Shown here: positions 9,944 to 61,619 of the stretch, in pieces
Layout: every line of letters begins with the position of its first letter
How positions within the stretch are numbered: position 1 is the stretch's first letter
Assembly: GCA_024683775.1 (NCBI GenBank)
Contig: GCA_024683775.1_4106.1
DNA: 64,000 bases
Origin: a phage
Reading direction: 5' to 3' (one strand)
The notes under the pieces: generated by a model
Told to the model about the DNA's origin: nothing
What the model saw: the letters and a program-made list of their open reading frames with translations, nothing else
Database searches by the model: none
Made by a program: the position numbers and the translations under genes

Positions 9944-10392
9944 ATCCAGGACAGTTTTTCCATTTACTTAGTATTACACCTATACCGGATTTAATCAGTG
10001 AAGCGAATCAATATCGTGATATAGGAATTGTATCTATGGAATACGATTCACCTGACTTTAAATGTTACGTAACATATGATTTGGTAGCCTATGAGTCAGA
10101 AACTGAGATAAAAAAACCATCATACATTTTTGTGTTCATATATAATGATTATAGTGGTGATCTACTCAATGATGTTCATATTGACACATTTGAAATATGT
10201 GATAATATTATAACAGATGATTCATCATGTACATTTGATTTATCAGAAAACAGTACTGAAGAGGCACTTTTTCAGTTGAGTACTGTTAGTGACACTGTAC
10301 TAACTCTTGATGACATTGAGAAATTTAAAGAACAGCTTGACGCAGTACGTGAGATGTTCTATAATCATTATCCAGAAATCGAGTTCAAATAA
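9937..10392 (+). CDS. FQxS-signature family protein
   Basis: 151 aa; motif EEALFQLSTVSD. Confidence 0.6.
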   Translation: MLNPGQFFHLLSITPIPDLISEANQYRDIGIVSMEYDSPDFKCYVTYDLVAYESETEIKKPSYIFVFIYNDYSGDLLNDVHIDTFEICDNIITDDSSCTFDLSENSTEEALFQLSTVSDTVLTLDDIEKFKEQLDAVREMFYNHYPEIEFK

Positions 10393-10406
10393 CTAAAGGT
10401 ATCAAA

Positions 10407-10667
10407 ATGACTAAAGTAGTTCGTAAACGCCACATGATGAACATGGATGAATTTCGCACCTTTGACAAATACCGTACTATGTTTCGTATGCTGTCACAGG
10501 GCCGTCCAATCGTCATTGTAACGGAGAATTACATGTCACCTGAGATGATGTTCGGTAATTATGAAAAGGTCTTCATGTTGTACGTGAAGCGTGAATTGCT
10601 AACGATTAAGACCTTAGCTGAAGCTACAGATGAAGATATGGATGGTGATAATACATTTACCATGTGA
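10407..10667 (+). CDS. hypothetical protein
   Basis: 86 aa ORF. Confidence 0.5.
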   Translation: MTKVVRKRHMMNMDEFRTFDKYRTMFRMLSQGRPIVIVTENYMSPEMMFGNYEKVFMLYVKRELLTIKTLAEATDEDMDGDNTFTM

Positions 10668-10745
10668 GGAAATATATGGCAGAAAAACCAAAAGAACCAT
10701 TGGACCGTGATGATGATTTTTACGACGAACGATATGGGGAATCAG

Positions 10746-10997
10746 ATGAGTGAACATCGTGCAGTACTTAAAAAGATTTTAAATGAACTTGGTGATGAGT
10801 TTAATGTTACTGAAGAAGAATATCAATGTTGGAAGAAGGATTTTGAACTCCTTGCTGAGTATGATAAAGTCTTCAATATGATTGGTGTCATTAGCCAGTA
10901 CTTACTTGGTGGTGGTCGAGCCAGTGCTTCAATTCTTGCATCTGCGATCATCTGTACTTCTCGATGGTGCGATGAAAAAAGTCTGGAAGATTTCTAA
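10746..10997 (+). CDS. hypothetical protein (start moved to an internal ATG with SD)
   Basis: ORF frame 10707-10997; gggga SD sits 6 nt before the ATG at 10746. Confidence 0.5.
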   Translation: MSEHRAVLKKILNELGDEFNVTEEEYQCWKKDFELLAEYDKVFNMIGVISQYLLGGGRASASILASAIICTSRWCDEKSLEDF

Positions 10998-11049
10998 ATA
11001 AGATGCTATAATGTATTATAGTACCTTAACAATATAAAAAGGATTTTAT

Positions 11050-11910
11050 ATGAAACCTATCAGAGTACTGTCACTTTTTAATGGAATGAGCGTTGGATAT
11101 ATGGCATTGGCAGATGCAGGTATTCCAGTTGAAAAATATTACTCATCTGAAATTGACAAGTACGCAATTGCTGAATCTTCCGAGAATTTTCCTGATATTA
11201 TCCAGTTAGGTGATGTGACTAAGTGGAAAGAATGGGATATTGAGTGGGATAAGATAGATTTACTCATGGGAGGATTCCCATGTCAAGCCTGGTCTGTTGC
11301 TGGTAAGCAAGGTGGCTTGAATGATATACGTGGACAGTTATTTTTGGTTATGGTTGATATTTTTGAGCACATCAAAAGTGTAAATCCAAACTTGCAATTT
11401 CTGTTCGAGAATGTTAAAATGAAGGAAGATTTCAAAGAATACATTAATAGTATTTTAGGAATCACACCAGTACTGATAAATTCCCAGCATTATACGCCTC
11501 ACTTCAGGCAGAGATACTACTGGTGCAGTACTGATAAGCTTTTTATACCACCTGCATTATCAAATGCCCCTAAACTTCAAGATATCATTGAAGATGGTTG
11601 GTATACTGACAGAACCGCTTCGTACTGTATAGATGCTAACTATTTTAAGGGTGGTGATTGTAACCAGTACTTTAATAAATCAAGACGACAGTTGGTGTTT
11701 CGTGACCCAACGATTAATCGTCAATATCTATTGGAGAATGGTAAAAGAAATATTGACTATAGACACTTAAGTGTAGTAGAATGTTGTAAATTACAGGGTA
11801 TTCCTGTAGATTTCTTTAAAGTGTCTAGTAAGACACAAGCATACAAAATGCTTGGGAATGGATGGACTATGCCAGTTATATCACACTTACTAAGAGAGAT
11901 ATTCTTTTGA
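11050..11910 (+). CDS. DNA (cytosine-5)-methyltransferase, apparently orphan
   Basis: 286 aa; m5C motifs LFNGMSVGYMAL (I), GGFPCQAWS (IV), ENV (VI), GNGWTMPV (X); no restriction endonuclease partner recognised nearby. Confidence 0.85.
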   Translation: MKPIRVLSLFNGMSVGYMALADAGIPVEKYYSSEIDKYAIAESSENFPDIIQLGDVTKWKEWDIEWDKIDLLMGGFPCQAWSVAGKQGGLNDIRGQLFLVMVDIFEHIKSVNPNLQFLFENVKMKEDFKEYINSILGITPVLINSQHYTPHFRQRYYWCSTDKLFIPPALSNAPKLQDIIEDGWYTDRTASYCIDANYFKGGDCNQYFNKSRRQLVFRDPTINRQYLLENGKRNIDYRHLSVVECCKLQGIPVDFFKVSSKTQAYKMLGNGWTMPVISHLLREIFF

Positions 11911-11912
11911 AC

Positions 11913-12392
11913 ATGAAGAACTACCCCACCTATACTGAACGTGTAATGAAATTTCAACGTCAGTCATCAAAGGAAGAATTAGAATTTAATTTGTACTATC
12001 CTAATATTGGTGATGAGGTATTCTATTGTTCTCATACAAAGAATGGAACTTTACTTAAATCTGGTAAAGGTATTATTGTTGATATGATTAGCACTTTCAA
12101 AGGTAAACTTAATGTAATGTACAAAGTACAAGATTCAAGTACTGAGTGCATTCATGAAGTGATGCATAATATACCTGCATATCCAAAGGATTTTGTTGAG
12201 CTAATATCTCGAAGGGAGAAACCTATGTTTTATTGTGGTTATGACAAACTAACCAAACAAATTATTCCTAATACTATGGGAAAATTTAAAAGTGATGTTA
12301 AAACTGAACTTAATAAGAAATTAGGTTCATCATGGGAAACTGAAAACGAATTCATCGAAATTCGTTTGATTGAAGTTACTATACTCGATTAA
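11913..12392 (+). CDS. hypothetical protein
   Basis: ORF frame 11862-12392; first ATG after the methyltransferase stop is 11913. Confidence 0.5.
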   Translation: MKNYPTYTERVMKFQRQSSKEELEFNLYYPNIGDEVFYCSHTKNGTLLKSGKGIIVDMISTFKGKLNVMYKVQDSSTECIHEVMHNIPAYPKDFVELISRREKPMFYCGYDKLTKQIIPNTMGKFKSDVKTELNKKLGSSWETENEFIEIRLIEVTILD

Positions 12393-21605: not shown

Positions 21606-21622
21606 ATATTGGAACAGACTAT

Positions 21623-21737
<115 letters not shown>

Positions 21738-21741
21738 AAAA

Positions 21742-21828
<87 letters not shown>

Positions 21829-21845
21829 CAATTAAAGGTTAAACC

Positions 21846-22006
<161 letters not shown>

Positions 22007-22010
<4 letters not shown>

Positions 22011-22167
22011 CACATGAAGAATGGATGAATGACATTAATTTTAGATATTCGGGTATCGGTAAATGGCTAAAGTATCATTGGGAATTCATTTCAGAGCCAC
22101 ATCTGTATGATAAACTTATCAACGATCCAGCATATGAAATGTACTTAATTGAACTACTGGTACGAAT

Positions 22168-22171
<4 letters not shown>
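22007..22171 (+). CDS. MTHEEWM mini-protein, copy 2 (54 aa)
   Basis: ATGA-coupled; MTHEEWMNDINFRYSGIGKWLKYHWEFISEPHLYDKLINDPAYEMYLIELLVRI. Confidence 0.45.
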
Positions 22172-22763
<592 letters not shown>

Positions 22764-22767
<4 letters not shown>

Positions 22768-22792
22768 CTAAATAGTTCAGTACTGATATAAT
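22764..22792 (+). promoter_or_regulatory. class-B promoter TTGACT-aaatagttcagtactga-TATAAT
   Basis: TTGACT 22764-22769, TATAAT 22787-22792. Confidence 0.55.
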
Positions 22793-22867
22793 GAATTCCA
22801 CAATCAGACGTATATGGTGTAAGTTACGTCGATGTAATCCAGAACAAGATCTCTGGTACTCTAGGAA

Positions 22868-23077
22868 GTGGTGAATGTTAACCTAGACGGGTTTGATAAT
22901 TGGACGATAGGCAATTATTACTTGACTAGCAGGTTTAAACTAGAGGTGACAGTCCTTTACCAAACTGGAAAACCGGATGGACTTTTATTTAAAAGGGTAA
23001 GGCGTGGAAATATGTTTACAGTAGTTGCTTTTAGTAGCCTGTACGCCCCACGTAAAGGTAGCCGAAAGGCAAGTTAA
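22868..23077 (+). CDS. uncertain: 69-aa ORF or part of a structured non-coding transcript
   Basis: lies between a class-B promoter and a T-run at about 23125-23133; locally more GC-rich; weak SD. Confidence 0.3.
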   Translation: MVNVNLDGFDNWTIGNYYLTSRFKLEVTVLYQTGKPDGLLFKRVRRGNMFTVVAFSSLYAPRKGSRKAS

Positions 23078-23155
23078 AACGGGTGGTTATAAAGCTGAAT
23101 TAACAGCGGCGTTTAAAAGCGTCACCATCCATTTTTTTTAATTAAAGTTGGTGAT

Positions 23156-23533
<378 letters not shown>

Positions 23534-23544
23534 GATTAAGTACT

Positions 23545-24109
<565 letters not shown>

Positions 24110-24127
24110 ATCAGTACTTTATTATGA

Positions 24128-24258
<131 letters not shown>

Positions 24259-24261
24259 AAT

Positions 24262-24351
24262 CGGTCCCGTTGCCTAGCGTCCGAAGGCAGCCGACTCATA
24301 ATCGGTCACAGTTAATGACACACCACTGGTTAGAATCCAGTCGGGACCACC
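24262..24351 (+). tRNA. tRNA, anticodon CAT (Met or lysidine-Ile), unusually long variable region
   Basis: acceptor ggtcccg/cgggacc, anticodon arm gccga-ctCATaa-tcggt, T-arm actgg-TTAGAAT-ccagt, CCA. Confidence 0.5.
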
Positions 24352-24354
24352 AAT

Positions 24355-24428
24355 TAGACTCTGTAGTTCAGTTGGTAGAACGCTTCACTCATAATGAAGA
24401 AGTCGCTGGTTCAATCCCAGTACTGACC
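24355..24428 (+). tRNA. tRNA-like, anticodon CAT; acceptor stem does not pair (possible pseudo-tRNA)
   Basis: canonical D-arm ta-gttc-agttggta-gaac, anticodon arm cttca-ctCATaa-tgaag, T-arm gctgg-TTCAATC-ccagt; 5' gactctg versus 3' actgacc are non-complementary. Confidence 0.35.
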
Positions 24429-24438
24429 ACAAAAAAAA

Positions 24439-26136
<1,698 letters not shown>

Positions 26137-26254
26137 AATATTCTCCTGAATTTTCTAAAAGTTATAATAATATTTAGTTACAATATTTATGATATAGATT
26201 AAAAAGTTGAAATGTGTTCAAAAAATGTGGTATAATACCTCTGTTGTTCACGGA

Positions 26255-26484
<230 letters not shown>

Positions 26485-26493
26485 TCAAAATTC

Positions 26494-26575
<82 letters not shown>

Positions 26576-26584
26576 TAAAACAAA

Positions 26585-26668
26585 TGGTAGTTAGCATATC
26601 GGCCTTATGCAACGGACTGTTAATCCGTGTCAGAAATGACAAGACTGGTTCGACTCCAGTACTACCAG
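26585..26668 (+). tRNA. tRNA-Asn (anticodon GTT), extended variable region
   Basis: acceptor tggtagt/actacca, D-arm gcat...atgc, anticodon arm acgga-ctGTTaa-tccgt, T-arm actgg-TTCGACT-ccagt. Confidence 0.55.
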
Positions 26669-26733
26669 CAAAACAATCATGAACCTCGGAACAATAAATA
26701 ATATCATACAGGATATTATGAGGTCTAAGGTTC

Positions 26734-27276
26734 ATGGGACGAAAACAATCAGAAGAAACACGTAAAAAAATAGCTGAATCATTAAAGGCTAAAAGTTCTA
26801 AATTACCAGAGAATGAAATAATTCAAAAATATTTAAATGGTATGCCAATTTACGGTTTAGCCAAAGAATATAAGTGTAATAGATCAAGAATAAATGATAT
26901 CGTTGAATCACATGGTGTTAAACGACCAAAATCAACCAATGAAATGCGATTTTGTGAAATACACAATAAGAATTATGAATTAAATTCACAAGGTAAATGG
27001 AAATGTTTAAAATGTGACAGTCAACGTGTTTCTGATAGACGTAGAAAATTAAAAATACTAGCCGTTGAATACAAAGGCGGTTGTTGTGAAAAGTGTGGAT
27101 ATGATAAATGCATTGCCGCATTAGAATTCCATCATGTTGATCCTTCACAGAAAGATTATTCAATTAGTCAAGAAGGTGCAACTCGTTCTTTTGAAAAAAT
27201 TAAAATAGAACTGGATAAATGTATTATGGTTTGTGCAAATTGTCATCGTGAGATTCATGATGATGAACGACAATAA
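26734..27276 (+). CDS. HNH homing endonuclease with NUMOD3-like N-terminus
   Basis: 180 aa; KQSEETRKKIAESL; CEKCGY...HHVDP...CANCHREIH zinc-finger HNH. Confidence 0.8.
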   Translation: MGRKQSEETRKKIAESLKAKSSKLPENEIIQKYLNGMPIYGLAKEYKCNRSRINDIVESHGVKRPKSTNEMRFCEIHNKNYELNSQGKWKCLKCDSQRVSDRRRKLKILAVEYKGGCCEKCGYDKCIAALEFHHVDPSQKDYSISQEGATRSFEKIKIELDKCIMVCANCHREIHDDERQ

Positions 27277-27279
27277 TTT

Positions 27280-27549
<270 letters not shown>

Positions 27550-27557
27550 GAATTTAA

Positions 27558-27959
27558 ATGAAAAAGAATGACTTGATCAAAATGCTTCAAGAGATTGACG
27601 GCAATCCAGAGATTGTTATTTGGAATGGATATGTCGATGATTATATGAACATCGAAAAAGGCTTGACTAAAATCACTCTAGTCAAAGAAACTGAACAGTT
27701 CCTTCTGGAAGCATTAGTGCACGAATGGTGCAAACGTAACAATACATTCGACATTCCAGAAGATCAACGAACTAAGATTGCAGAACAAGCTAAAAAACTT
27801 CATAAGAAACGTGAATACGATTTCCAGAACCCACATGTTACTGAAGACGAATTCAATCACTGGTACGGTAAAAAGAAATTGACAAAATATGTCATTTCAC
27901 CTAAACTACGTGGTAAGACTTCACTTGGTGTCTTCAACGCCGCTGACTTAAACTACTAG
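27558..27959 (+). CDS. hypothetical protein
   Basis: 133 aa ORF. Confidence 0.55.
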   Translation: MKKNDLIKMLQEIDGNPEIVIWNGYVDDYMNIEKGLTKITLVKETEQFLLEALVHEWCKRNNTFDIPEDQRTKIAEQAKKLHKKREYDFQNPHVTEDEFNHWYGKKKLTKYVISPKLRGKTSLGVFNAADLNY

Positions 27960-27968
27960 CGGGTATTA

Positions 27969-28236
<268 letters not shown>

Positions 28237-28281
28237 GATTCCCGATTCAGTAGCTTATAAAGCAGTTCCGTGTGTGCCTAT

Positions 28282-28334
<53 letters not shown>

Positions 28335-28335
28335 T

Positions 28336-28373
<38 letters not shown>

Positions 28374-28392
28374 AGAGGTACTTCGAGTATGC

Positions 28393-28501
<109 letters not shown>

Positions 28502-28520
28502 AAATCTTAGTAAGAAAATA

Positions 28521-28602
<82 letters not shown>

Positions 28603-28681
28603 GAAGAAACTGCTAAACAGCTTGAAGTACTTTGTAGTGCTGCACCTATGCCGACACTTGGCTTAATCAAGTTGATGCGTA

Positions 28682-28723
<42 letters not shown>

Positions 28724-28774
28724 GCCTCCCCTCAATGCGAAAGAGTATAGAGACTTGTTGGTTATCTTACTTCT

Positions 28775-28852
<78 letters not shown>

Positions 28853-28870
28853 ACAAAATAAAGGTACACT

Positions 28871-40145: not shown

Positions 40146-41111
40146 GTGAAAAAGCTTGATTTAAATGCAATTTCTGAAGAAGTACTGGATGAGTGTTTTG
40201 CTAGTGAAGAAGTCAACGTATTAGAGGCTCTTGATTCCGTCGAAGAAGAAGAACATGACGGTCACAAGTTTGAGAAACCAAAAACAGGTATCAGCTTAAC
40301 TCGCCCTAAAGGGATAACGAATGAAATGCTCATCCAAGCAGTGCGTGATGGTATTGACGTTGAAAAGAACATTGACCTTTTGGTTCGCTACAACTATCCA
40401 ATGGTAGTAAGTGTTGCACGTAAGTGTACATGTTTTATCCCATTTGAAGATAAGATTTCTTATGGTGTTGAAGGTTTAATGCGAGCAATTCATACGTTCG
40501 ACACTACCAAAAATGTTAAGTTCATTACATATGCAACAACAACTGTGTACATGACAATCTATAACGAAAGTGCAGATGCTAATTATCTAGTGCATTTCCC
40601 ACGTTATATGAGTGTTAATAACATTTATGTGAAACGTTGTGTAGAAGAGTATCAAAGGAAACATGGTAAATACCCAACTCCTGAGATGGTGTCAAAAGAG
40701 ACTGGTATTGAGATTCAACACGTTAAGAATTGTCTAACTTACAGTAACACTTATGTAGCATTGAATATGAAAATGAGTAATGATTCAGAAAGTACATTAT
40801 CTGACATTGTTACTTCAGTTGAACCTGATTACAACTTAGGCGTAGAAACTGTCAGTACCCCACTGGTACAAAGTATTGCAGAAATGATGAGTAACCTATC
40901 TGCCAAAGACCGTGAATTGATTGAACGTGTACATGGTATTGGTTCTTATTCTGAACCCGAAACGCTACGAGAAATCATTGAGAGTGGTTTTGAAGATGAG
41001 AAGGGTAAGGTCATGACTGCTCGTTCTTCATTGCACCGTAAGTACTCTGAAGCAATGGAACGACTGCGTAAGATGGTTAAGACAAAAGGTTATGAGTTCG
41101 AAGATTTTTAA
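40146..41111 (+). CDS. sigma-70 family RNA polymerase sigma factor (phage-encoded)
   Basis: 321 aa, GTG start with SD aggag; region-2-like NYPMVVSVARK...GVEGLMRAIHTFD...KFITYATTTVYMTI; region-4-like HTH ...LREIIESGFEDEKGKVMTARSSLHRKYSEAMERLRK. Confidence 0.7.
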   Translation: MKKLDLNAISEEVLDECFASEEVNVLEALDSVEEEEHDGHKFEKPKTGISLTRPKGITNEMLIQAVRDGIDVEKNIDLLVRYNYPMVVSVARKCTCFIPFEDKISYGVEGLMRAIHTFDTTKNVKFITYATTTVYMTIYNESADANYLVHFPRYMSVNNIYVKRCVEEYQRKHGKYPTPEMVSKETGIEIQHVKNCLTYSNTYVALNMKMSNDSESTLSDIVTSVEPDYNLGVETVSTPLVQSIAEMMSNLSAKDRELIERVHGIGSYSEPETLREIIESGFEDEKGKVMTARSSLHRKYSEAMERLRKMVKTKGYEFEDF

Positions 41112-41117
41112 GATTAA

Positions 41118-41145
41118 AGGGTTGACTTCGGTCAGCCTTTTTTTA
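41118..41145 (+). terminator. terminator-promoter cassette copy 1 (ggTTGACttcgGTCAgcc + T-run), -10 degenerate
   Basis: hairpin 41118-41137, T7 run; TTGACT 41122-41127. Confidence 0.55.
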
Positions 41146-41771
41146 TGGGACAAATTTATTAATGGTGATACAATGATCTATGTACAATCACAATGACAGT
41201 ACTGGTACTGACAATCTTCCCCTACTTCACTTGAAAATGTAAAGGATAGATGAGCTTTTCATTGTAGCGAACAGCAAAAGAAACCCGTTAGATGTGGGCA
41301 TAGTTTGAACCCCTCACGGCAATGCGGCTGTATAAAGAACCACGTTAGGATAGCTGGTGGTTCCTCGATAGACATATAAGGATAACACCTTACGAATTAT
41401 CTAAGGGAGAGTTATCGAATTTTGTACAGGAAAGTTGCGTCCAAAATTTGAGTACTCACATTAAGTATTTGATTGCATAGATACTTAATGAAGATACACT
41501 ATGTTTAAAAGTGTAGACCGTCATATGAAACTGAAGTAGAGAGAAACAGGATGACCCGCTTTCGCACTCGTTATGAGTAATCTTCAATGCAATAGCTCTG
41601 ATACCATCAGCGTCAAATTTCCCTCCGTGCGGGGGGAAGAAAAATCCCTTCCTCAAATCCCGTCAATATTAAAAGTCCTTGACAGTTATGATTCATTCGC
41701 GTAGAATACGTAGTATTAGAAGCGAACAGACATCTCGAAGAGATGGATGATTAACCATTGAGGAATATCTA

Positions 41772-41981
41772 ATGAATTCAGTAATCTTTTTAATTATTGC
41801 TCTTTCACCACAATCTGGTGTACAAATCACCCCAATGAATTCAATGAATCAATGCATTGCAGTACGTGACAGTACGTATGAACAAGTAAACAGCGTTTCA
41901 CTTAGAACAGTTGGTGAAGAATTAATGTGGTGTTACAATAGTAATACTAAAGAAAAACTAATTGTTGGACAAACAGAATGA
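41772..41981 (+). CDS. hypothetical secreted or membrane protein
   Basis: 69 aa, hydrophobic N-terminus. Confidence 0.5.
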   Translation: MNSVIFLIIALSPQSGVQITPMNSMNQCIAVRDSTYEQVNSVSLRTVGEELMWCYNSNTKEKLIVGQTE

Positions 41982-42209: not shown

Positions 42210-43004
42210 ATGAGCACTATAGATGAATTGATTCGCCGGAATTCAAAATACTACGACCCATCAGAAATTGTCGGCAACATTACTAAATCTGAGTTCGGCC
42301 CAAATACTCGAAAACTCATTCATGTAATGTCACGTGATGGCTTTAAATGTGATTGTTGTGGTGAATCCAATGTGGTATTCACTTTACATAAGCACAGTAC
42401 TAAAGACCGTTATAAATTCAGACCTTATGTACTTAAAGGGAAACGCCTTGTACGCATGACGTTAGACCATAATGTACTGGACTGTCTTCAGGGCGGTAAT
42501 GATAAAGAGAACATGACCGCATTGTGTGAGGATTGTAACGCATTACGCCAGCATAAGTTTGCTGAGTACAGTGAGTTTAAGCACTGGTATCATAACGCTG
42601 ATCGTTCTATCGAGCCTGACGTTAACTACTGCTTCATTGAGTATATTAAGAATGCTAAAGATACGTACATTCTTAAATCAATGTCACCTATTACAGTGTT
42701 CCCTGAGAATCTATTCAGTACTATGCAGCGTGATTTTAAACGTGGTATCATTAATGCATTCAAACATTTAGACAAAGGTATCAAGCACTTTGAGGTGCAA
42801 TGCTTAAATGAAGGAATGAATCGTTTAGTACAAATTTACATGAAATCATTTATAGGTGTTGACACCGCACGTCTACCAGTATATAATTACTTTATTGAAA
42901 GCGAAGAAGGTGAATCACTTCGTGATTATGGTGAAAGATTTAATAATAAAGTTTTCACTGCAATCGCAAACGAGATTCATTACTATAAACCATATGTAAT
43001 TTAA
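42210..43004 (+). CDS. HNH-motif protein (putative HNH endonuclease)
   Basis: 264 aa; CDCCGE...H...LDHN...GGNDKENMTALCEDCNALRQHKF. Confidence 0.5.
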   Translation: MSTIDELIRRNSKYYDPSEIVGNITKSEFGPNTRKLIHVMSRDGFKCDCCGESNVVFTLHKHSTKDRYKFRPYVLKGKRLVRMTLDHNVLDCLQGGNDKENMTALCEDCNALRQHKFAEYSEFKHWYHNADRSIEPDVNYCFIEYIKNAKDTYILKSMSPITVFPENLFSTMQRDFKRGIINAFKHLDKGIKHFEVQCLNEGMNRLVQIYMKSFIGVDTARLPVYNYFIESEEGESLRDYGERFNNKVFTAIANEIHYYKPYVI

Positions 43005-49060: not shown

Positions 49061-49252
49061 ATGTTGATTTATCAATGTGATAACATTCGTGTTATGCAGC
49101 ATCCCTACTTACAAATCTTTGATGTGCAGCAGTATATGGAAGGTGATGATCCAAGAACCTATGGTCGTAAGTATGATTACTTCACTGTAAAGCAGTGTCG
49201 TGACATCAAAGAAGTACGACAATTAGTTCAAGAACTTCAAAATAAAGGTTGA
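49061..49252 (+). CDS. hypothetical protein
   Basis: ORF frame 49031-49252; SD gagga. Confidence 0.45.
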   Translation: MLIYQCDNIRVMQHPYLQIFDVQQYMEGDDPRTYGRKYDYFTVKQCRDIKEVRQLVQELQNKG

Positions 49253-49278
49253 CTTCGGTCAACCTTTTTTGTTATAAT
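49246..49278 (+). promoter_or_regulatory. terminator-promoter cassette copy 2
   Basis: hairpin aggTTGAC-ttcg-GTCAacct 49246-49265, T-run, TATAAT 49273-49278; -35 TTGACT inside the 5' arm. Confidence 0.6.
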
Positions 49279-52448: not shown

Positions 52449-52832
52449 ATGGTTGATAAATGGAATAAGAAAGATCCATCGCATGATGTGGATATTTCTG
52501 GAATTGATAATGCACATAAGCATAAGTATCTTGATTCACTAGGTCTACTAAAGCCTGACCAAAGTCTTGCACATGATCGTCCTTCACGTGAAAAAGCTTT
52601 CAGTCTAGAATCACTAGGCCATGAATTGAATCGTGTATTTGAAGATCATCCAATTTATGTACGTGATATCATTGAGAAACTTAAAGTGACTCCTAAAGAG
52701 CACTTCAAGGCAACAGTACACGCAGCATTCCGTGCACTACATGAAGCACTAAAGAAAACTCATAACCTTCGCAAGATTCATGATGACATCGTGAACTCTA
52801 TTGAAGGCGAAAAACATAAGTTTAAAAAATAA
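52449..52832 (+). CDS. hypothetical basic protein; shares a YLDSLGLL-type motif with 54195-55688
   Basis: 127 aa; SD aaggag. Confidence 0.55.
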   Translation: MVDKWNKKDPSHDVDISGIDNAHKHKYLDSLGLLKPDQSLAHDRPSREKAFSLESLGHELNRVFEDHPIYVRDIIEKLKVTPKEHFKATVHAAFRALHEALKKTHNLRKIHDDIVNSIEGEKHKFKK

Positions 52833-52839
52833 TTAAAAG

Positions 52840-52872
52840 GGGTTGACTTCAGTCAGCCCTTTGTCGTATAAT
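52840..52872 (+). promoter_or_regulatory. terminator-promoter cassette copy 3
   Basis: hairpin gggTTGAC-ttca-GTCAgccc, TATAAT 52867-52872. Confidence 0.6.
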
Positions 52873-53597: not shown

Positions 53598-53619
53598 TGG
53601 TATAGTACAGTGAAAATAG

Positions 53620-53649
53620 GGTTGACTTCGGTCAACCTTTATATATAAT
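53620..53649 (+). promoter_or_regulatory. terminator-promoter cassette copy 4
   Basis: hairpin ggTTGAC-ttcg-GTCAacc, TATAAT 53644-53649. Confidence 0.6.
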
Positions 53650-55688: not shown

Positions 55689-55697
55689 ACATTTAAA

Positions 55698-55730
55698 AGG
55701 TTGACTTCGGTCAACCTTTTTTTGTAAATA
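55698..55730 (+). promoter_or_regulatory. terminator-promoter cassette copy 5 (weak -10)
   Basis: hairpin aggTTGAC-ttcg-GTCAacct plus T7 run. Confidence 0.55.
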
Positions 55731-56372: not shown

Positions 56373-56379
56373 AAGAAAA

Positions 56380-56412
56380 GGGTTGACTTCGGTCGGCCCT
56401 TTTTGCTATAAT
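56380..56412 (+). promoter_or_regulatory. terminator-promoter cassette copy 6
   Basis: hairpin gggTTGAC-ttcg-GTCggccc, TTTTT, GCTATAAT (TATAAT 56407-56412). Confidence 0.6.
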
Positions 56413-60600: not shown

Positions 60601-61010
60601 AGAAGTGTATCACGTGTAATATTGAAAAAGACATTAGTGAATTTGGTATAAGAAGTGATACTGGGAAACATAGAAATACATGCAAAGGTTGTAGTAATAT
60701 TACCAGTAAGAGAACCAGAAATAAAAAAACTGATGTAAAAACACTTGAAGAAATCAAAAGAAAAAATAAAGATTTCATGACCAGAGTTAAATCATTTTAT
60801 GGTTGTAGTGTTTGTATGATGAAGTATCCAGAATGTTTAGACTTTCACCATCTTGACCCTAATACCAAAGAACATACACCAAGTTCTATGTTCAGTAAAA
60901 GTCGAGAATCTATCAAAGATGAAATTCGAAAGTGTATGATTCTTTGTTCTAATCACCATCGCATGGTACATTCTGGTAGACTATGTTTGATTGAAAGAAA
61001 AAAGGGTTGA
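60597..61010 (+). CDS. HNH endonuclease
   Basis: 137 aa; CITC...C..C...CSVCMM...FHHLDPNTK...CSNHHRMVH. Confidence 0.75.
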   Translation: MKKCITCNIEKDISEFGIRSDTGKHRNTCKGCSNITSKRTRNKKTDVKTLEEIKRKNKDFMTRVKSFYGCSVCMMKYPECLDFHHLDPNTKEHTPSSMFSKSRESIKDEIRKCMILCSNHHRMVHSGRLCLIERKKG

Positions 61011-61036
61011 CTTCGGTCAGCCCTTTTTGCTATAAT
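61004..61036 (+). promoter_or_regulatory. terminator-promoter cassette copy 7
   Basis: hairpin gggTTGAC-ttcg-GTCAgccc 61004-61023, TTTTT, TATAAT 61031-61036. Confidence 0.6.
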
Positions 61037-61580: not shown

Positions 61581-61586
61581 AGGTAA

Positions 61587-61619
61587 GGGTTGACTTCGGT
61601 CAGCCCTTTTTGCTATAAT
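61587..61619 (+). promoter_or_regulatory. terminator-promoter cassette copy 8
   Basis: hairpin gggTTGAC-ttcg-GTCAgccc 61587-61606, TTTTT, TATAAT 61614-61619. Confidence 0.6.

Follow-up and report, generated by a model that had tools for sequence, protein, structure and literature searches.

A candidate class of large, pseudoknotted non-coding RNA in RaK2-like jumbo phages

The locus and its surroundings

What is encoded in the 660 nt that follow a sigma-factor gene of phage EC.P1 (Asteriusvirus)? In the 64,000-nucleotide stretch of this genome analysed here (the window), positions 41112-41771 form the largest gap free of open reading frames, the runner-up measuring 266 nt and the median 50 nt, so that a first-pass annotation of this DNA was right to call the spacer unusually long; it saw in it a candidate for a structured non-coding RNA, an origin of replication or a regulatory hub linked to the sigma factor. 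The ORFs inside the gap comprise 34 and 43 aa on the + strand and 38 and 66 aa on the - strand, the longest at 41456-41656; as had been reported, none of at least 60 aa runs in the gene orientation.

The upstream neighbour, which lies outside the RNA discussed below, is a gene of 321 codons with a GTG start (40146-41111, + strand). Its product matches the Pfam models Sigma70_r2 (residues 79-141, E 2.6e-9) and Sigma70_r3 (residues 162-224, E 8.6e-12), both above cut-off, and aligns with the NCBIfam models RpoD_Cterm (residues 78-296, E 3.7e-27) and RpoS (residues 79-319), both below the family cut-off; because of these matches its membership of the sigma-70 family is sound. The region 2 signature read from the sequence earlier is thus recovered by Pfam, and region 4 is reached only by the full-length RpoD_Cterm and RpoS alignments, the Pfam region-4 model being unmatched even at E<=10. 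By inference, the phage factor may redirect the host RNA polymerase. The sigma transcript would end at an intrinsic-terminator-like hairpin, AGGGTTGAC-TTCG-GTCAGCCTT followed by a T run (41118-41146, + strand), which is one of several near-identical terminators of ~30 nt within the window and is annotated as such in phages G17 and UE-S1; it was picked up by a separate hairpin and T-run scan and is absent from the consensus terminator scan.

The repeated agcgaacag, also pointed out at first reading, is present at 41266 and 41722; about 0.8 repeated 9-mers are expected by chance in 660 nt, and the conserved core described below holds only the copy at 41266.

A covarying fold on the + strand

Comparison across related phages, proposed earlier as a check, strongly supports positions 41112-41771 as the gene for a structured, pseudoknotted non-coding RNA of ~500 bases, read from the + strand. 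The structure was counted over 34 non-redundant homologues (2415 cells); its 72 base pairs make up 17 helices, including three pseudoknots. The positions are paired in 97.6% of cases, and compensatory double changes occur at 48 of the 72 pairs. The covariation score is 0.531, against 0.189 in shuffled alignments (0 of 500 shuffles reach 0.531) and at most 0.104 in slid ones; the helices were chosen from the same alignment family that was used for counting, which somewhat inflates these figures, and the margin over the controls is large. RNAalifold independently predicted 53 pairs, 30 of them compensatory. The covarying helices contain 1152 Watson-Crick, 66 G-U and 2 A-C cells; G-U pairs are therefore tolerated on one strand only, which identifies the + strand as the RNA and points to RNA rather than duplex DNA. 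Minimum-free-energy z-scores of -1.6 (+ strand) and -2.0 (- strand) are uninformative. Long unpaired stretches of the RNA are invariant.

The search for a protein-coding signal found no frame open across the copies, and 346 of 383 indels among the homologues are not multiples of three. Neither a conserved protein gene in the gap nor a lack of conservation in related phages was found, either of which would have spoken against the RNA; homologues are kept across genera, from Asteriusvirus to RaK2.

The conserved core, a class A paralogue (see below), extends over 41214-41675 on the + strand, to which all coordinates in this section refer; it was delimited by alignments and by nhmmer matches that span 41214-41670 and 41218-41675 with E values of about 1e-110 to 1e-141. 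A long-range helix, ACAGC/GCTGT (41271-41275 with 41327-41331), is 100% paired with double changes at four of its five pairs, and encloses a helix CCGT/ACGG (41285-41288 with 41316-41319) that is also 100% paired, with one of four pairs doubly changed. Covariation supports a pseudoknot or tertiary pairing of ATG with CAT (helix 5; 41322-41324 with 41373-41375), which becomes ACA:UGU in EC.P1 copies C and D and has AUA as its 5' side in other genera. The hairpin GAACCA/TGGTTC (helices 6-7; 41337-41363), noticed at first reading as gaaccac...gtggttc (41337-41343/41357-41363), is real and conserved, all six tested pairs showing compensatory changes. It is followed by a hairpin TAAG/CTTA (helix 8; 41377-41392; 100% paired, two pairs doubly changed) and by a helix GAG/CTC (helix 9; 41409-41457) around a portable hairpin module, AATTTTG...CAAAATT with the loop TACAGGAAAGTTGCGTC, which is missing at this place in class C copies and doubled in class D copies.

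The 3' domain (41467-41593) contains helices 10-12 and 14-16, which are 93-100% paired with 22 of 28 pairs doubly changed. Covariation defines here a local stem (41467-41470/41479-41482), whose loop ATTGCAT (41472-41478) forms a pseudoknot with ATGCAAT (41587-41593), a hairpin (41495-41498/41512-41515), a helix TGAAG/CTTCA (41532-41536/41582-41586), and two further hairpins, GAGAG/CTTTC (41539-41543/41559-41563) and 41566-41568/41576-41578. The remaining pseudoknot (helix 13) joins GTCAT (41520-41524) to ATGAC (41551-41555), which belongs to the loop closed by hairpin 41539-41563; it is 100% paired with three pairs doubly changed.

Beyond this domain lies a terminal G/C hairpin, TTTCCCTCC-GTGC-GGGGGGAAG (helix 17; 41618-41641, paired at 41623-41627/41632-41636), flanked by the direct repeats R1, ATCAGCGTCAA (41606-41616), and R2, AATCCCGTCAA (41656-41666), the latter at the conserved region's end. 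This is the second hairpin that had been singled out (ccctcc..gggggg); it too is real and conserved, and varies only from C to U opposite an invariant G run. That the 5' arm holds only C or U there indicates a constraint at the RNA level, and a reading of the hairpin as a DNA operator palindrome was rejected, since only the 5' arm varies and only from C to U. R1 and R2 change together by identity across the homologues, and a factor encoded by the phage may recognize or process the RNA at these co-varying CGUCA repeats. A search was made for a third strand that could pair with R1 and R2; RNAduplex favours the invariant GAUGAG, yet variants with GUUGAG keep CGUC, and covariation thus gives this pairing no support.

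Transcription signals

The predicted promoter of the RNA gene, recognized by motif recurrence and conservation, consists of TGGGACA, a 13-nt spacer and the extended -10 element TGATACAAT (41146-41174, + strand), and places the predicted start of the RNA at about 41180-41182. The motif with its rigid 13-nt spacer occurs at 21 sites in the EC.P1 genome, compared with 0.3 in shuffles, and is kept upstream of the homologues. Each of the four copies of the RNA in EC.P1 is preceded by one such phage promoter, TGRGACA-N13-TGnTAyAAT, a class that also directly precedes a tRNA gene (tRNA-Ser) and is found before nucleotide-metabolism genes. Its counterpart in phage CBB is the published TGAAACG/-10 class of promoters (PMC5259590). 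Between promoter and core, a variable 5' leader (41181-41213, + strand) carries the hairpin CAGTAC-TG-GTACTG, and the homologues have a hairpin of other sequence at the equivalent place.

The 3' end of the RNA is likewise a prediction. Class C and class D copies have an intrinsic terminator of their own inside the conserved region, and class B copies have one just 3' of the promoter; the hairpin and T-run scan found none within 350 nt of the core in class A and class B copies. A promoter-to-terminator placement in a co-oriented operon holds for copies A, B and D and not for C, the terminator positions being class-dependent. Outside the core, a sigma-70-type promoter-like site, TTGACA-17-TAGAAT (41679-41707, + strand; 11 of 12 consensus positions), would serve the ORFs from 41772 onwards, and is kept in Asteriusvirus class A copies.

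Four paralogues per genome

The EC.P1 genome contains exactly four dispersed, diverged paralogues, all in one orientation, the other three lying 52-112 kb from the window copy in unrelated contexts. Four copies each were found in nine complete RaK2-like genomes (EC.P1, GAP32, CBB, Yen9-04, 121Q and four uncultured phages), and RaK2 and K64-1 contain full-length homologues (E 1e-56 and 1e-41). Grouping by sequence identity alone failed to resolve the copies; structural features separate them into four classes (A-D), which are the four paralogues and recur across genera. Between 61 and 72 phage records hold a match, a 25-base pattern retrieved 50 IMG/VR loci and 69 metagenome loci, and about 90 distinct homologous sequences are known. 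A bacterial origin of the element gained no support from an 18-base pattern, which fits only some of the classes: it had 34 genome matches, none of them confirmed by HMM. Across genera the copies are syntenic and 60-70% diverged, which argues against recent movement. The four syntenic, dispersed paralogues in one orientation would also suit a chromosomal role in cis, and to that extent count against action in trans.

In EC.P1, a co-oriented gene follows 83-114 nt past the core at three of the four copies, whereas copy C lies antisense to the genes on either side and converges on its neighbour. The genes downstream of class A copies differ between genera. The sigma gene is directly upstream of the RNA in the window and in Klebsiella phage K64-1, and 1.7-3.3 kb upstream in two other phages. 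The suggested regulatory hub linked to the sigma factor accordingly retains the adjacency in EC.P1 and K64-1, a link that is at most positional given the distance of the other paralogues.

Comparison with known RNAs

The Rfam scan that had been suggested found no catalogued family in the gap. At gathering threshold, Rfam 15 (4227 models, including GOLLD, ROOL, OLE, HEARO, raiA, RNase P, tmRNA, group I/II introns, 6S and phage pRNA) recognized only seven tRNAs in the whole window; at E<=10, positions 41000-41900 gave three chance-level matches, none in the core helices, and seven loci with other paralogues gave nothing in their cores at E<=1. ARAGORN placed tRNAs at 21.6-28.9 kb only, and no tRNA or tmRNA at 41.1-41.8 kb. 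Searches of the literature by phage names, topic and invariant sequence strings found no description of the RNA and turned up no RNA-seq data for these phages.

Several other readings were rejected. Bacterial RNase P RNA is similar in size and has long-range pseudoknots, and to the eye the short strings AGAUGA..ACGA-CAG..AACCCG-CUU recall it; however, its Rfam models do not match at E<=10, the order of the strings relative to the helices differs, the strand needed to form P4 is missing, and four paralogues would be unprecedented. A hammerhead or K-turn reading of AGAUGAG-hairpin-CGAAC fails because required hammerhead core positions vary (GUUGAG, AAUGAG). The GGA of a putative CsrA site, ACAGGAUG, is not conserved in the homologues, and UAAGGGAG and GGGGGGAUGAAA, considered as a small ORF or a Shine-Dalgarno sequence, lack the AUG in the window copy and keep no frame.

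GOLLD and ROOL, which often occur in phages and prophages near tRNA genes, are the closest in kind: they too are RNAs of ~0.5 kb or more, many-helix, pseudoknotted and phage-borne, with long invariant unpaired stretches, and the jumbo-phage RNA shares its promoter class with a tRNA gene. It differs from them in matching neither of their Rfam models in sequence or structure, even at E<=10, and in belonging to jumbo myoviruses of Enterobacteria with four diverged paralogues per genome. According to a preprint, GOLLD and ROOL form RNA-only multimeric cages by cryo-EM (bioRxiv 10.1101/2024.12.08.627333). The related jumbo phage PA5oct, which relies on host RNA polymerase, produces ORF-free transcripts (ncRNA001-004) that were found by RNA-seq and account for up to about 5% of phage reads; one is 451 nt long, and two stay at very high levels for the whole of infection (PMC7318152). 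Of these, ncRNA001 and ncRNA002 are not evident homologues, as nhmmer detected no similarity to the 19-kb stretch that contains them, and they are not reported to have a conserved structure.

Alternative readings

A cis-acting element of the transcript, that is, a giant leader or processive antiterminator following the logic of HK022 put or lambda nut, is unlikely. Loaded at the start of each of four long transcription units, the element would enable RNA polymerase to pass terminators; it is promoter-proximal, in dispersed copies of the same orientation, three of which have a co-oriented gene shortly past the core. The terminators inside the conserved region of classes C and D and just after the class B promoter suit it as well, and class A and B copies, whose nearest 350 nt hold no terminator belonging to them, may be transcribed on into the genes that follow, in line with a role in cis. 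Against this, copy C, which converges on its neighbour, lacks any co-oriented gene on which it could act, the genes downstream of class A copies vary between genera, and a separate promoter stands between core and downstream ORF in the window, with similar ones in class B flanks. The antiterminator RNAs known so far are several times shorter and have far simpler folds. HK022 put and lambda nut resemble the present RNA in being promoter-proximal, in occurring more than once in a genome and in having terminators behind them, but measure tens of nt with one or two stem-loops, compared with ~460 conserved nt and three pseudoknots, and show no sequence relation to it; copy C, besides, has no operon to antiterminate.

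We consider it improbable that the four copies are origins of replication, at which a persistent RNA-DNA hybrid, stabilized by the invariant G6 run, would prime leading-strand synthesis as at T4 oriF/oriG or by ColE1 RNA II. Four dispersed copies, an invariant G run near the RNA 3' end, a promoter class common to DNA-metabolism genes and a T4-like replisome (PMC5259590) are in keeping with such a role. The GC-skew analysis proposed at first reading gave no origin signal at the locus: skew is flat or monotonic over the window, and genome-wide its sign switches are confined to blocks where the genes run the other way, none of them falling at any of the four copies, which is a weak test in T4-like phages. 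ColE1 RNA II is a structured transcript of about 550 nt that uses a G-rich stretch, and in T4 several origins, dispersed over the genome, use middle promoters; these too are non-coding transcripts with dedicated promoters, but they are not homologous to the present RNA, and T4 origin transcripts are not known to have or need a conserved fold, in contrast to the 450 nt of sequence and tertiary pairing conserved here across genera. The G run, moreover, is part of an RNA hairpin, and the arm opposite it stays able to pair (C or U only); a non-systematic look beside the copies noticed no iterons or AT-rich unwinding element. Even less probable is a selfish or guide-type RNA, be it an intron or ribozyme that has degenerated or an RNA that works with a nuclease or recombinase, in which R1 and R2 would be identical by descent as cleavage or recombination sites. 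The multiple copies, the repeats that flank a hairpin and co-vary by identity, and a gene ~0.5 kb downstream of the window copy that is annotated elsewhere as HNH-like speak for it; against it, the copies are syntenic, 60-70% diverged and not recently moved, none of the adjoining genes is consistently a nuclease, reverse transcriptase or transposase, Pfam gives no match for the 264-aa ORF, and the intron, ribozyme and guide-RNA models of Rfam are all without a match. Small protein-coding genes, as implied by the one to four 'hypothetical proteins' annotated here in several GenBank records, have a negligible probability: the homologues share no conserved ORF, their indels mostly disrupt the frame, and substitutions track base-pairing and not codon position.

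Proposed function and significance

On balance, we favour a folded RNA of the replication phase acting in trans, encoded by a structured RNA gene of ~0.5 kb. The RNA would be stable and made in the replication (middle) phase, and would most likely form the core of a ribonucleoprotein, or else an RNA-only assembly or a ribozyme; it probably acts neither as a site on the DNA nor as coding sequence, nor as the leader of a particular gene. That it is an independent gene rather than a leader is suggested by the promoter that each copy has of its own, the antisense position of copy C relative to both neighbours, the terminators belonging to classes C and D, and the differing downstream genes of class A. 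A stable RNA is suggested by the promoter class, which drives tRNA-Ser directly, and by the multiple copies per genome; by analogy, the abundant ORF-free transcripts of PA5oct would be consistent with it. Neither a partner protein nor a substrate or catalytic motif was identified.

The RNA probably represents a new class of large phage RNA. More tentatively, and as a possibility we regard as rather less than probable, this class of large, ornate RNA would be specific to RaK2-like jumbo phages and its obligatory quartet of paralogues would act in concert, for instance as hetero-oligomers that form an RNA or RNP machine or a ribozyme, with the CGUCA repeats as a new signal marking recognition or processing.

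To our knowledge, only a handful of bacterial and phage non-coding RNAs longer than ~400 nt have a conserved tertiary architecture, and each of those we know of turned out to be either a core machine of the cell or a puzzle of long standing. The present candidate is well defined, with a predicted promoter, ~460 conserved nt, 17 helices, three pseudoknots and roughly 90 distinct sequences, and its occurrence in cultivable E. coli phages makes direct deletion, probing and imaging possible. In practical terms, spurious 'hypothetical proteins' stand across these loci in dozens of GenBank records. For the biology of these phages, the set of four paralogues and the repeats that co-vary by identity could point to a new principle of RNA-protein or RNA-RNA recognition.

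The phage sigma factor gene and its downstream gap

The window matches the genome of Escherichia phage EC.P1 (PQ657772.1), a RaK2-like jumbo myovirus of the Asteriusvirus type, at 100% identity and in reverse orientation. The ORF at 40146-41111 encodes a sigma-70 family protein, which is matched by the Pfam models for regions 2 and 3 and aligned across nearly its full length by the NCBIfam RpoD_Cterm and RpoS models. The family assignment and the region 2 signature of the first-pass annotation therefore stand, while the region 4 signature it had also proposed found no match to the Pfam region-4 model. The gene ends in a hairpin followed by a T run (41118-41146), annotated as a terminator in other records and called in our own terminator scan; it is not listed by the consensus terminator scan of the window. 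This hairpin belongs to a near-identical family of terminator-like hairpins of about 30 nt (AAGGGTTGAC..GTCAGCCTTTTTTT) that is reused after many genes of the window (49244-49270, 52832-52862, 53618-53646, 55693-55723, 56377-56404, 61001-61028 and 61585-61611).

The gap noted downstream of the sigma factor ORF (41112-41771) is real, and at 660 nt it is the largest ORF-free stretch of the window, compared with 266 nt for the next largest and a median of 50 nt. A sigma-70-type promoter-like site with 11 of 12 consensus positions (41679-41707) lies upstream of the next ORF (41772) and is separate from the promoter of the RNA described below. Further downstream, a 264-aa ORF (42210-43004), whose annotation in phage G17 notes similarity to a 121Q HNH endonuclease, contains a CxxC motif and has no Pfam match at E<=0.01.

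Conservation and coding potential

Using blastn, the gap stretch was found in 61-62 phage records, and with a more divergent query in 72. Its central part (~41221-41676) retains about 70% identity in other genera (CBB, GAP32, Serratia BF, Erwinia, Yersinia, Xanthomonas), where the matches occur in differing genomic contexts and at several places per genome. Full-length homologues are present in RaK2 (E 1e-56) and K64-1 (E 1e-41), the K64-1 copy being located directly 3' of the K64-1 sigma gene. Across the copies no reading frame stays open, and of 383 pairwise indels 346 have lengths not divisible by three; what is conserved is not a protein. In several GenBank records these loci nevertheless bear calls for short hypothetical proteins on either strand, including K64-1 gp305-gp308 (record L434, 514-1193), GAP32_503A (record L005, 2841-2954), and others in WPEC3/WPEC5, JP4, SHEFM2K and further records; these are probably spurious calls.

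The proposed Rfam scan returned no known family: neither the window copy nor seven loci carrying other paralogues matched Rfam 15, whether gathering thresholds or permissive E-values were used, and ARAGORN reported nothing at the RNA locus. No published description was found in the literature on these phages, on the topic, or by searching with the invariant sequence strings. Abundant ORF-free transcripts have been described for the related phage PA5oct (PMC7318152); its ncRNA001 and ncRNA002 show no similarity to the RNA. An exact-pattern scan of limited sensitivity across 185,579 bacterial and archaeal genomes yielded chance matches only.

A conserved, pseudoknotted fold

The predicted RNA promoter (TGGGACA-N13-TGATACAAT) is located at 41146-41174, with an RNA start predicted at about 41181, followed by a variable 5' hairpin within 41181-41213. 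The 5' domain contains a long-range helix (41271-41275/41327-41331), and an AUG:CAU tertiary pairing (41322-41324/41373-41375) spans a hairpin at 41337-41363. A second hairpin (41377-41392), a portable hairpin module (41409-41457) and a pseudoknotted 3' domain (41467-41593), whose second pseudoknot pairs 41520-41524 with 41551-41555, precede a terminal G/C hairpin (41618-41641), which is flanked by the direct repeats R1 (41606-41616) and R2 (41656-41666).

From 25 copies RNAalifold predicted 53 pairs, and 30 of these carry double compensatory changes. On 34 copies (non-redundant at ~96% identity, 11 clusters at 75% identity) we then tested a manually curated structure that comprises 17 helices, among them three pseudoknots, and a total of 72 pairs. 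Paired cells amounted to 97.6%, compared with ~42% when partners were slid by one to three columns, and 48 of the 72 pairs changed on both sides. The covariation score was 0.531, versus 0.189 in shuffles (0 of 500 reached 0.531) and at most 0.104 when slid, figures that are somewhat favoured as the helices were picked on alignments of the same family. Nine covarying helices comprised 1152 Watson-Crick, 66 G-U and 2 A-C cells; because G-U so outnumbers A-C, the folded strand is the + strand of the window, and the constraint acts on RNA and not on duplex DNA. Thermodynamic z-scores were unremarkable (-1.6 and -2.0). Both hairpins pointed out in the first-pass annotation are among the covariation-tested helices, and its reading of a structured ncRNA is upheld by the fold, the strand bias and the closed frames. 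Long invariant single-stranded stretches are embedded in this fold.

R1 and R2, each ~11 nt, co-vary by identity and not by complementarity across genera and paralogues: CGUCAG occurs in both repeats of 48 copies, CGUCAA of at least 23, CUUCAA of RaK2 and K64-1, and UGUCAG of one copy. The dinucleotide 5' of the motif is likewise the same in R1 and R2 within a given molecule. A search for a third strand complementary to the repeats found none; as a speculation, they may be two sites for one factor, such as a processing enzyme.

Four paralogues per genome

The window and seven further pieces were joined into the whole EC.P1 genome, in which nhmmer located exactly four copies, all in the same orientation: A, the window copy (56.8-57.2 kb), C (169.3-169.8 kb), D (254.4-254.9 kb) and B (306.7-307.2 kb). 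Each occupies a 660-840-bp gap between flanking annotated genes, and copy C is antisense to both of its neighbours. Four copies apiece were also found in the complete genomes of GAP32, CBB, Yen9-04 and 121Q and in four uncultured genomes, and they sort into the recurring classes A to D. A specific 25-base pattern recovered 50 loci in IMG/VR and 69 in metagenomes; the long contigs from this set, at 349-371 kb, are of jumbo-phage size. A regulatory hub linked to the sigma factor, another reading of the first-pass annotation, is unsupported.

In class A, near the sigma gene, no terminator lies within the core or in the 350 nt scanned beyond it. In classes C and D an intrinsic terminator separates R1 from the terminal hairpin; the portable module is present in D and missing from its usual place in C. 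Class B adjoins a methyltransferase-annotated gene, and a covarying hairpin with a U6-7 run stands directly 3' of its promoter and 5' of the core (EC.P1 ~307,250-307,290 in piece L246; also records L052, L012, L020 and L016). The stop codon of the upstream gene falls right at the -35 element, and the hairpin, probably that gene's terminator, would in addition attenuate transcription of the RNA itself. Elsewhere in EC.P1 (piece L241), about 2 kb without an annotated gene (10,013-11,996, outside the window) and gaps of 500-700 bp at 2.2-2.9, 13.2-13.8 and 14.8-15.4 kb may hold other RNAs or genes.

A shared, phage-specific promoter class

The motif [TC]G[AG][AG]AC[AG]-N13-TGnTAyAaT, in its rigid form TGRGACA-N13-TGnTAyAAT, occurs 21 times on one strand of the EC.P1 genome (0.3 expected). 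One such promoter lies upstream of each of the four RNA copies, another directly drives tRNA-Ser (promoter ~21610-21638, tRNA at 21649), and others precede genes in DNA- and nucleotide-metabolism regions. Phage CBB has a counterpart in the 'divergent RpoD-like' TGAAACG/-10 promoter, described upstream of its DNA-synthesis genes (PMC5259590). The neighbouring phage sigma factor may read these promoters, the 21 sites being its candidate regulon. Among the seven tRNA genes of the window (21649-28854), three or four are called tRNA-Met(CAT), a tRNA-Ser has the unusual anticodon ACT, and one gene is matched by Rfam only in part (24364-24421, model positions 8-63).

Putative function

The promoter motif, the conserved fold, the independence of copy C from its neighbours, the terminators of classes C and D and the retention of multiple copies together incline us, by a modest margin of confidence, towards a stable, trans-acting folded RNA. 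It would be made during the replication phase and might form the core of an RNP, assemble from RNA alone or act as a ribozyme, like other large ornate RNAs. The main alternative, a cis-acting role on transcription, is suggested by the terminators within or close to the element and by their absence after classes A and B; we regard it as unlikely. Still more doubtful is an origin primer, for which the only positive evidence is the dispersal of the copies, their class of promoter and a G6 run that never varies. The replication origin suggested earlier is unsupported, and GC skew gives no sign of one: it is flat across the window and changes sign genome-wide only where blocks of genes run in the opposite orientation.

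The RNA is of high interest because it is large and intricate, experimentally tractable and unusual in its family features. The finding reaches well past its coordinates, to an RNA family of four members that RaK2-like jumbo phages conserve and Rfam lacks; we class it as new among the large structured phage ncRNAs, a kind already known.
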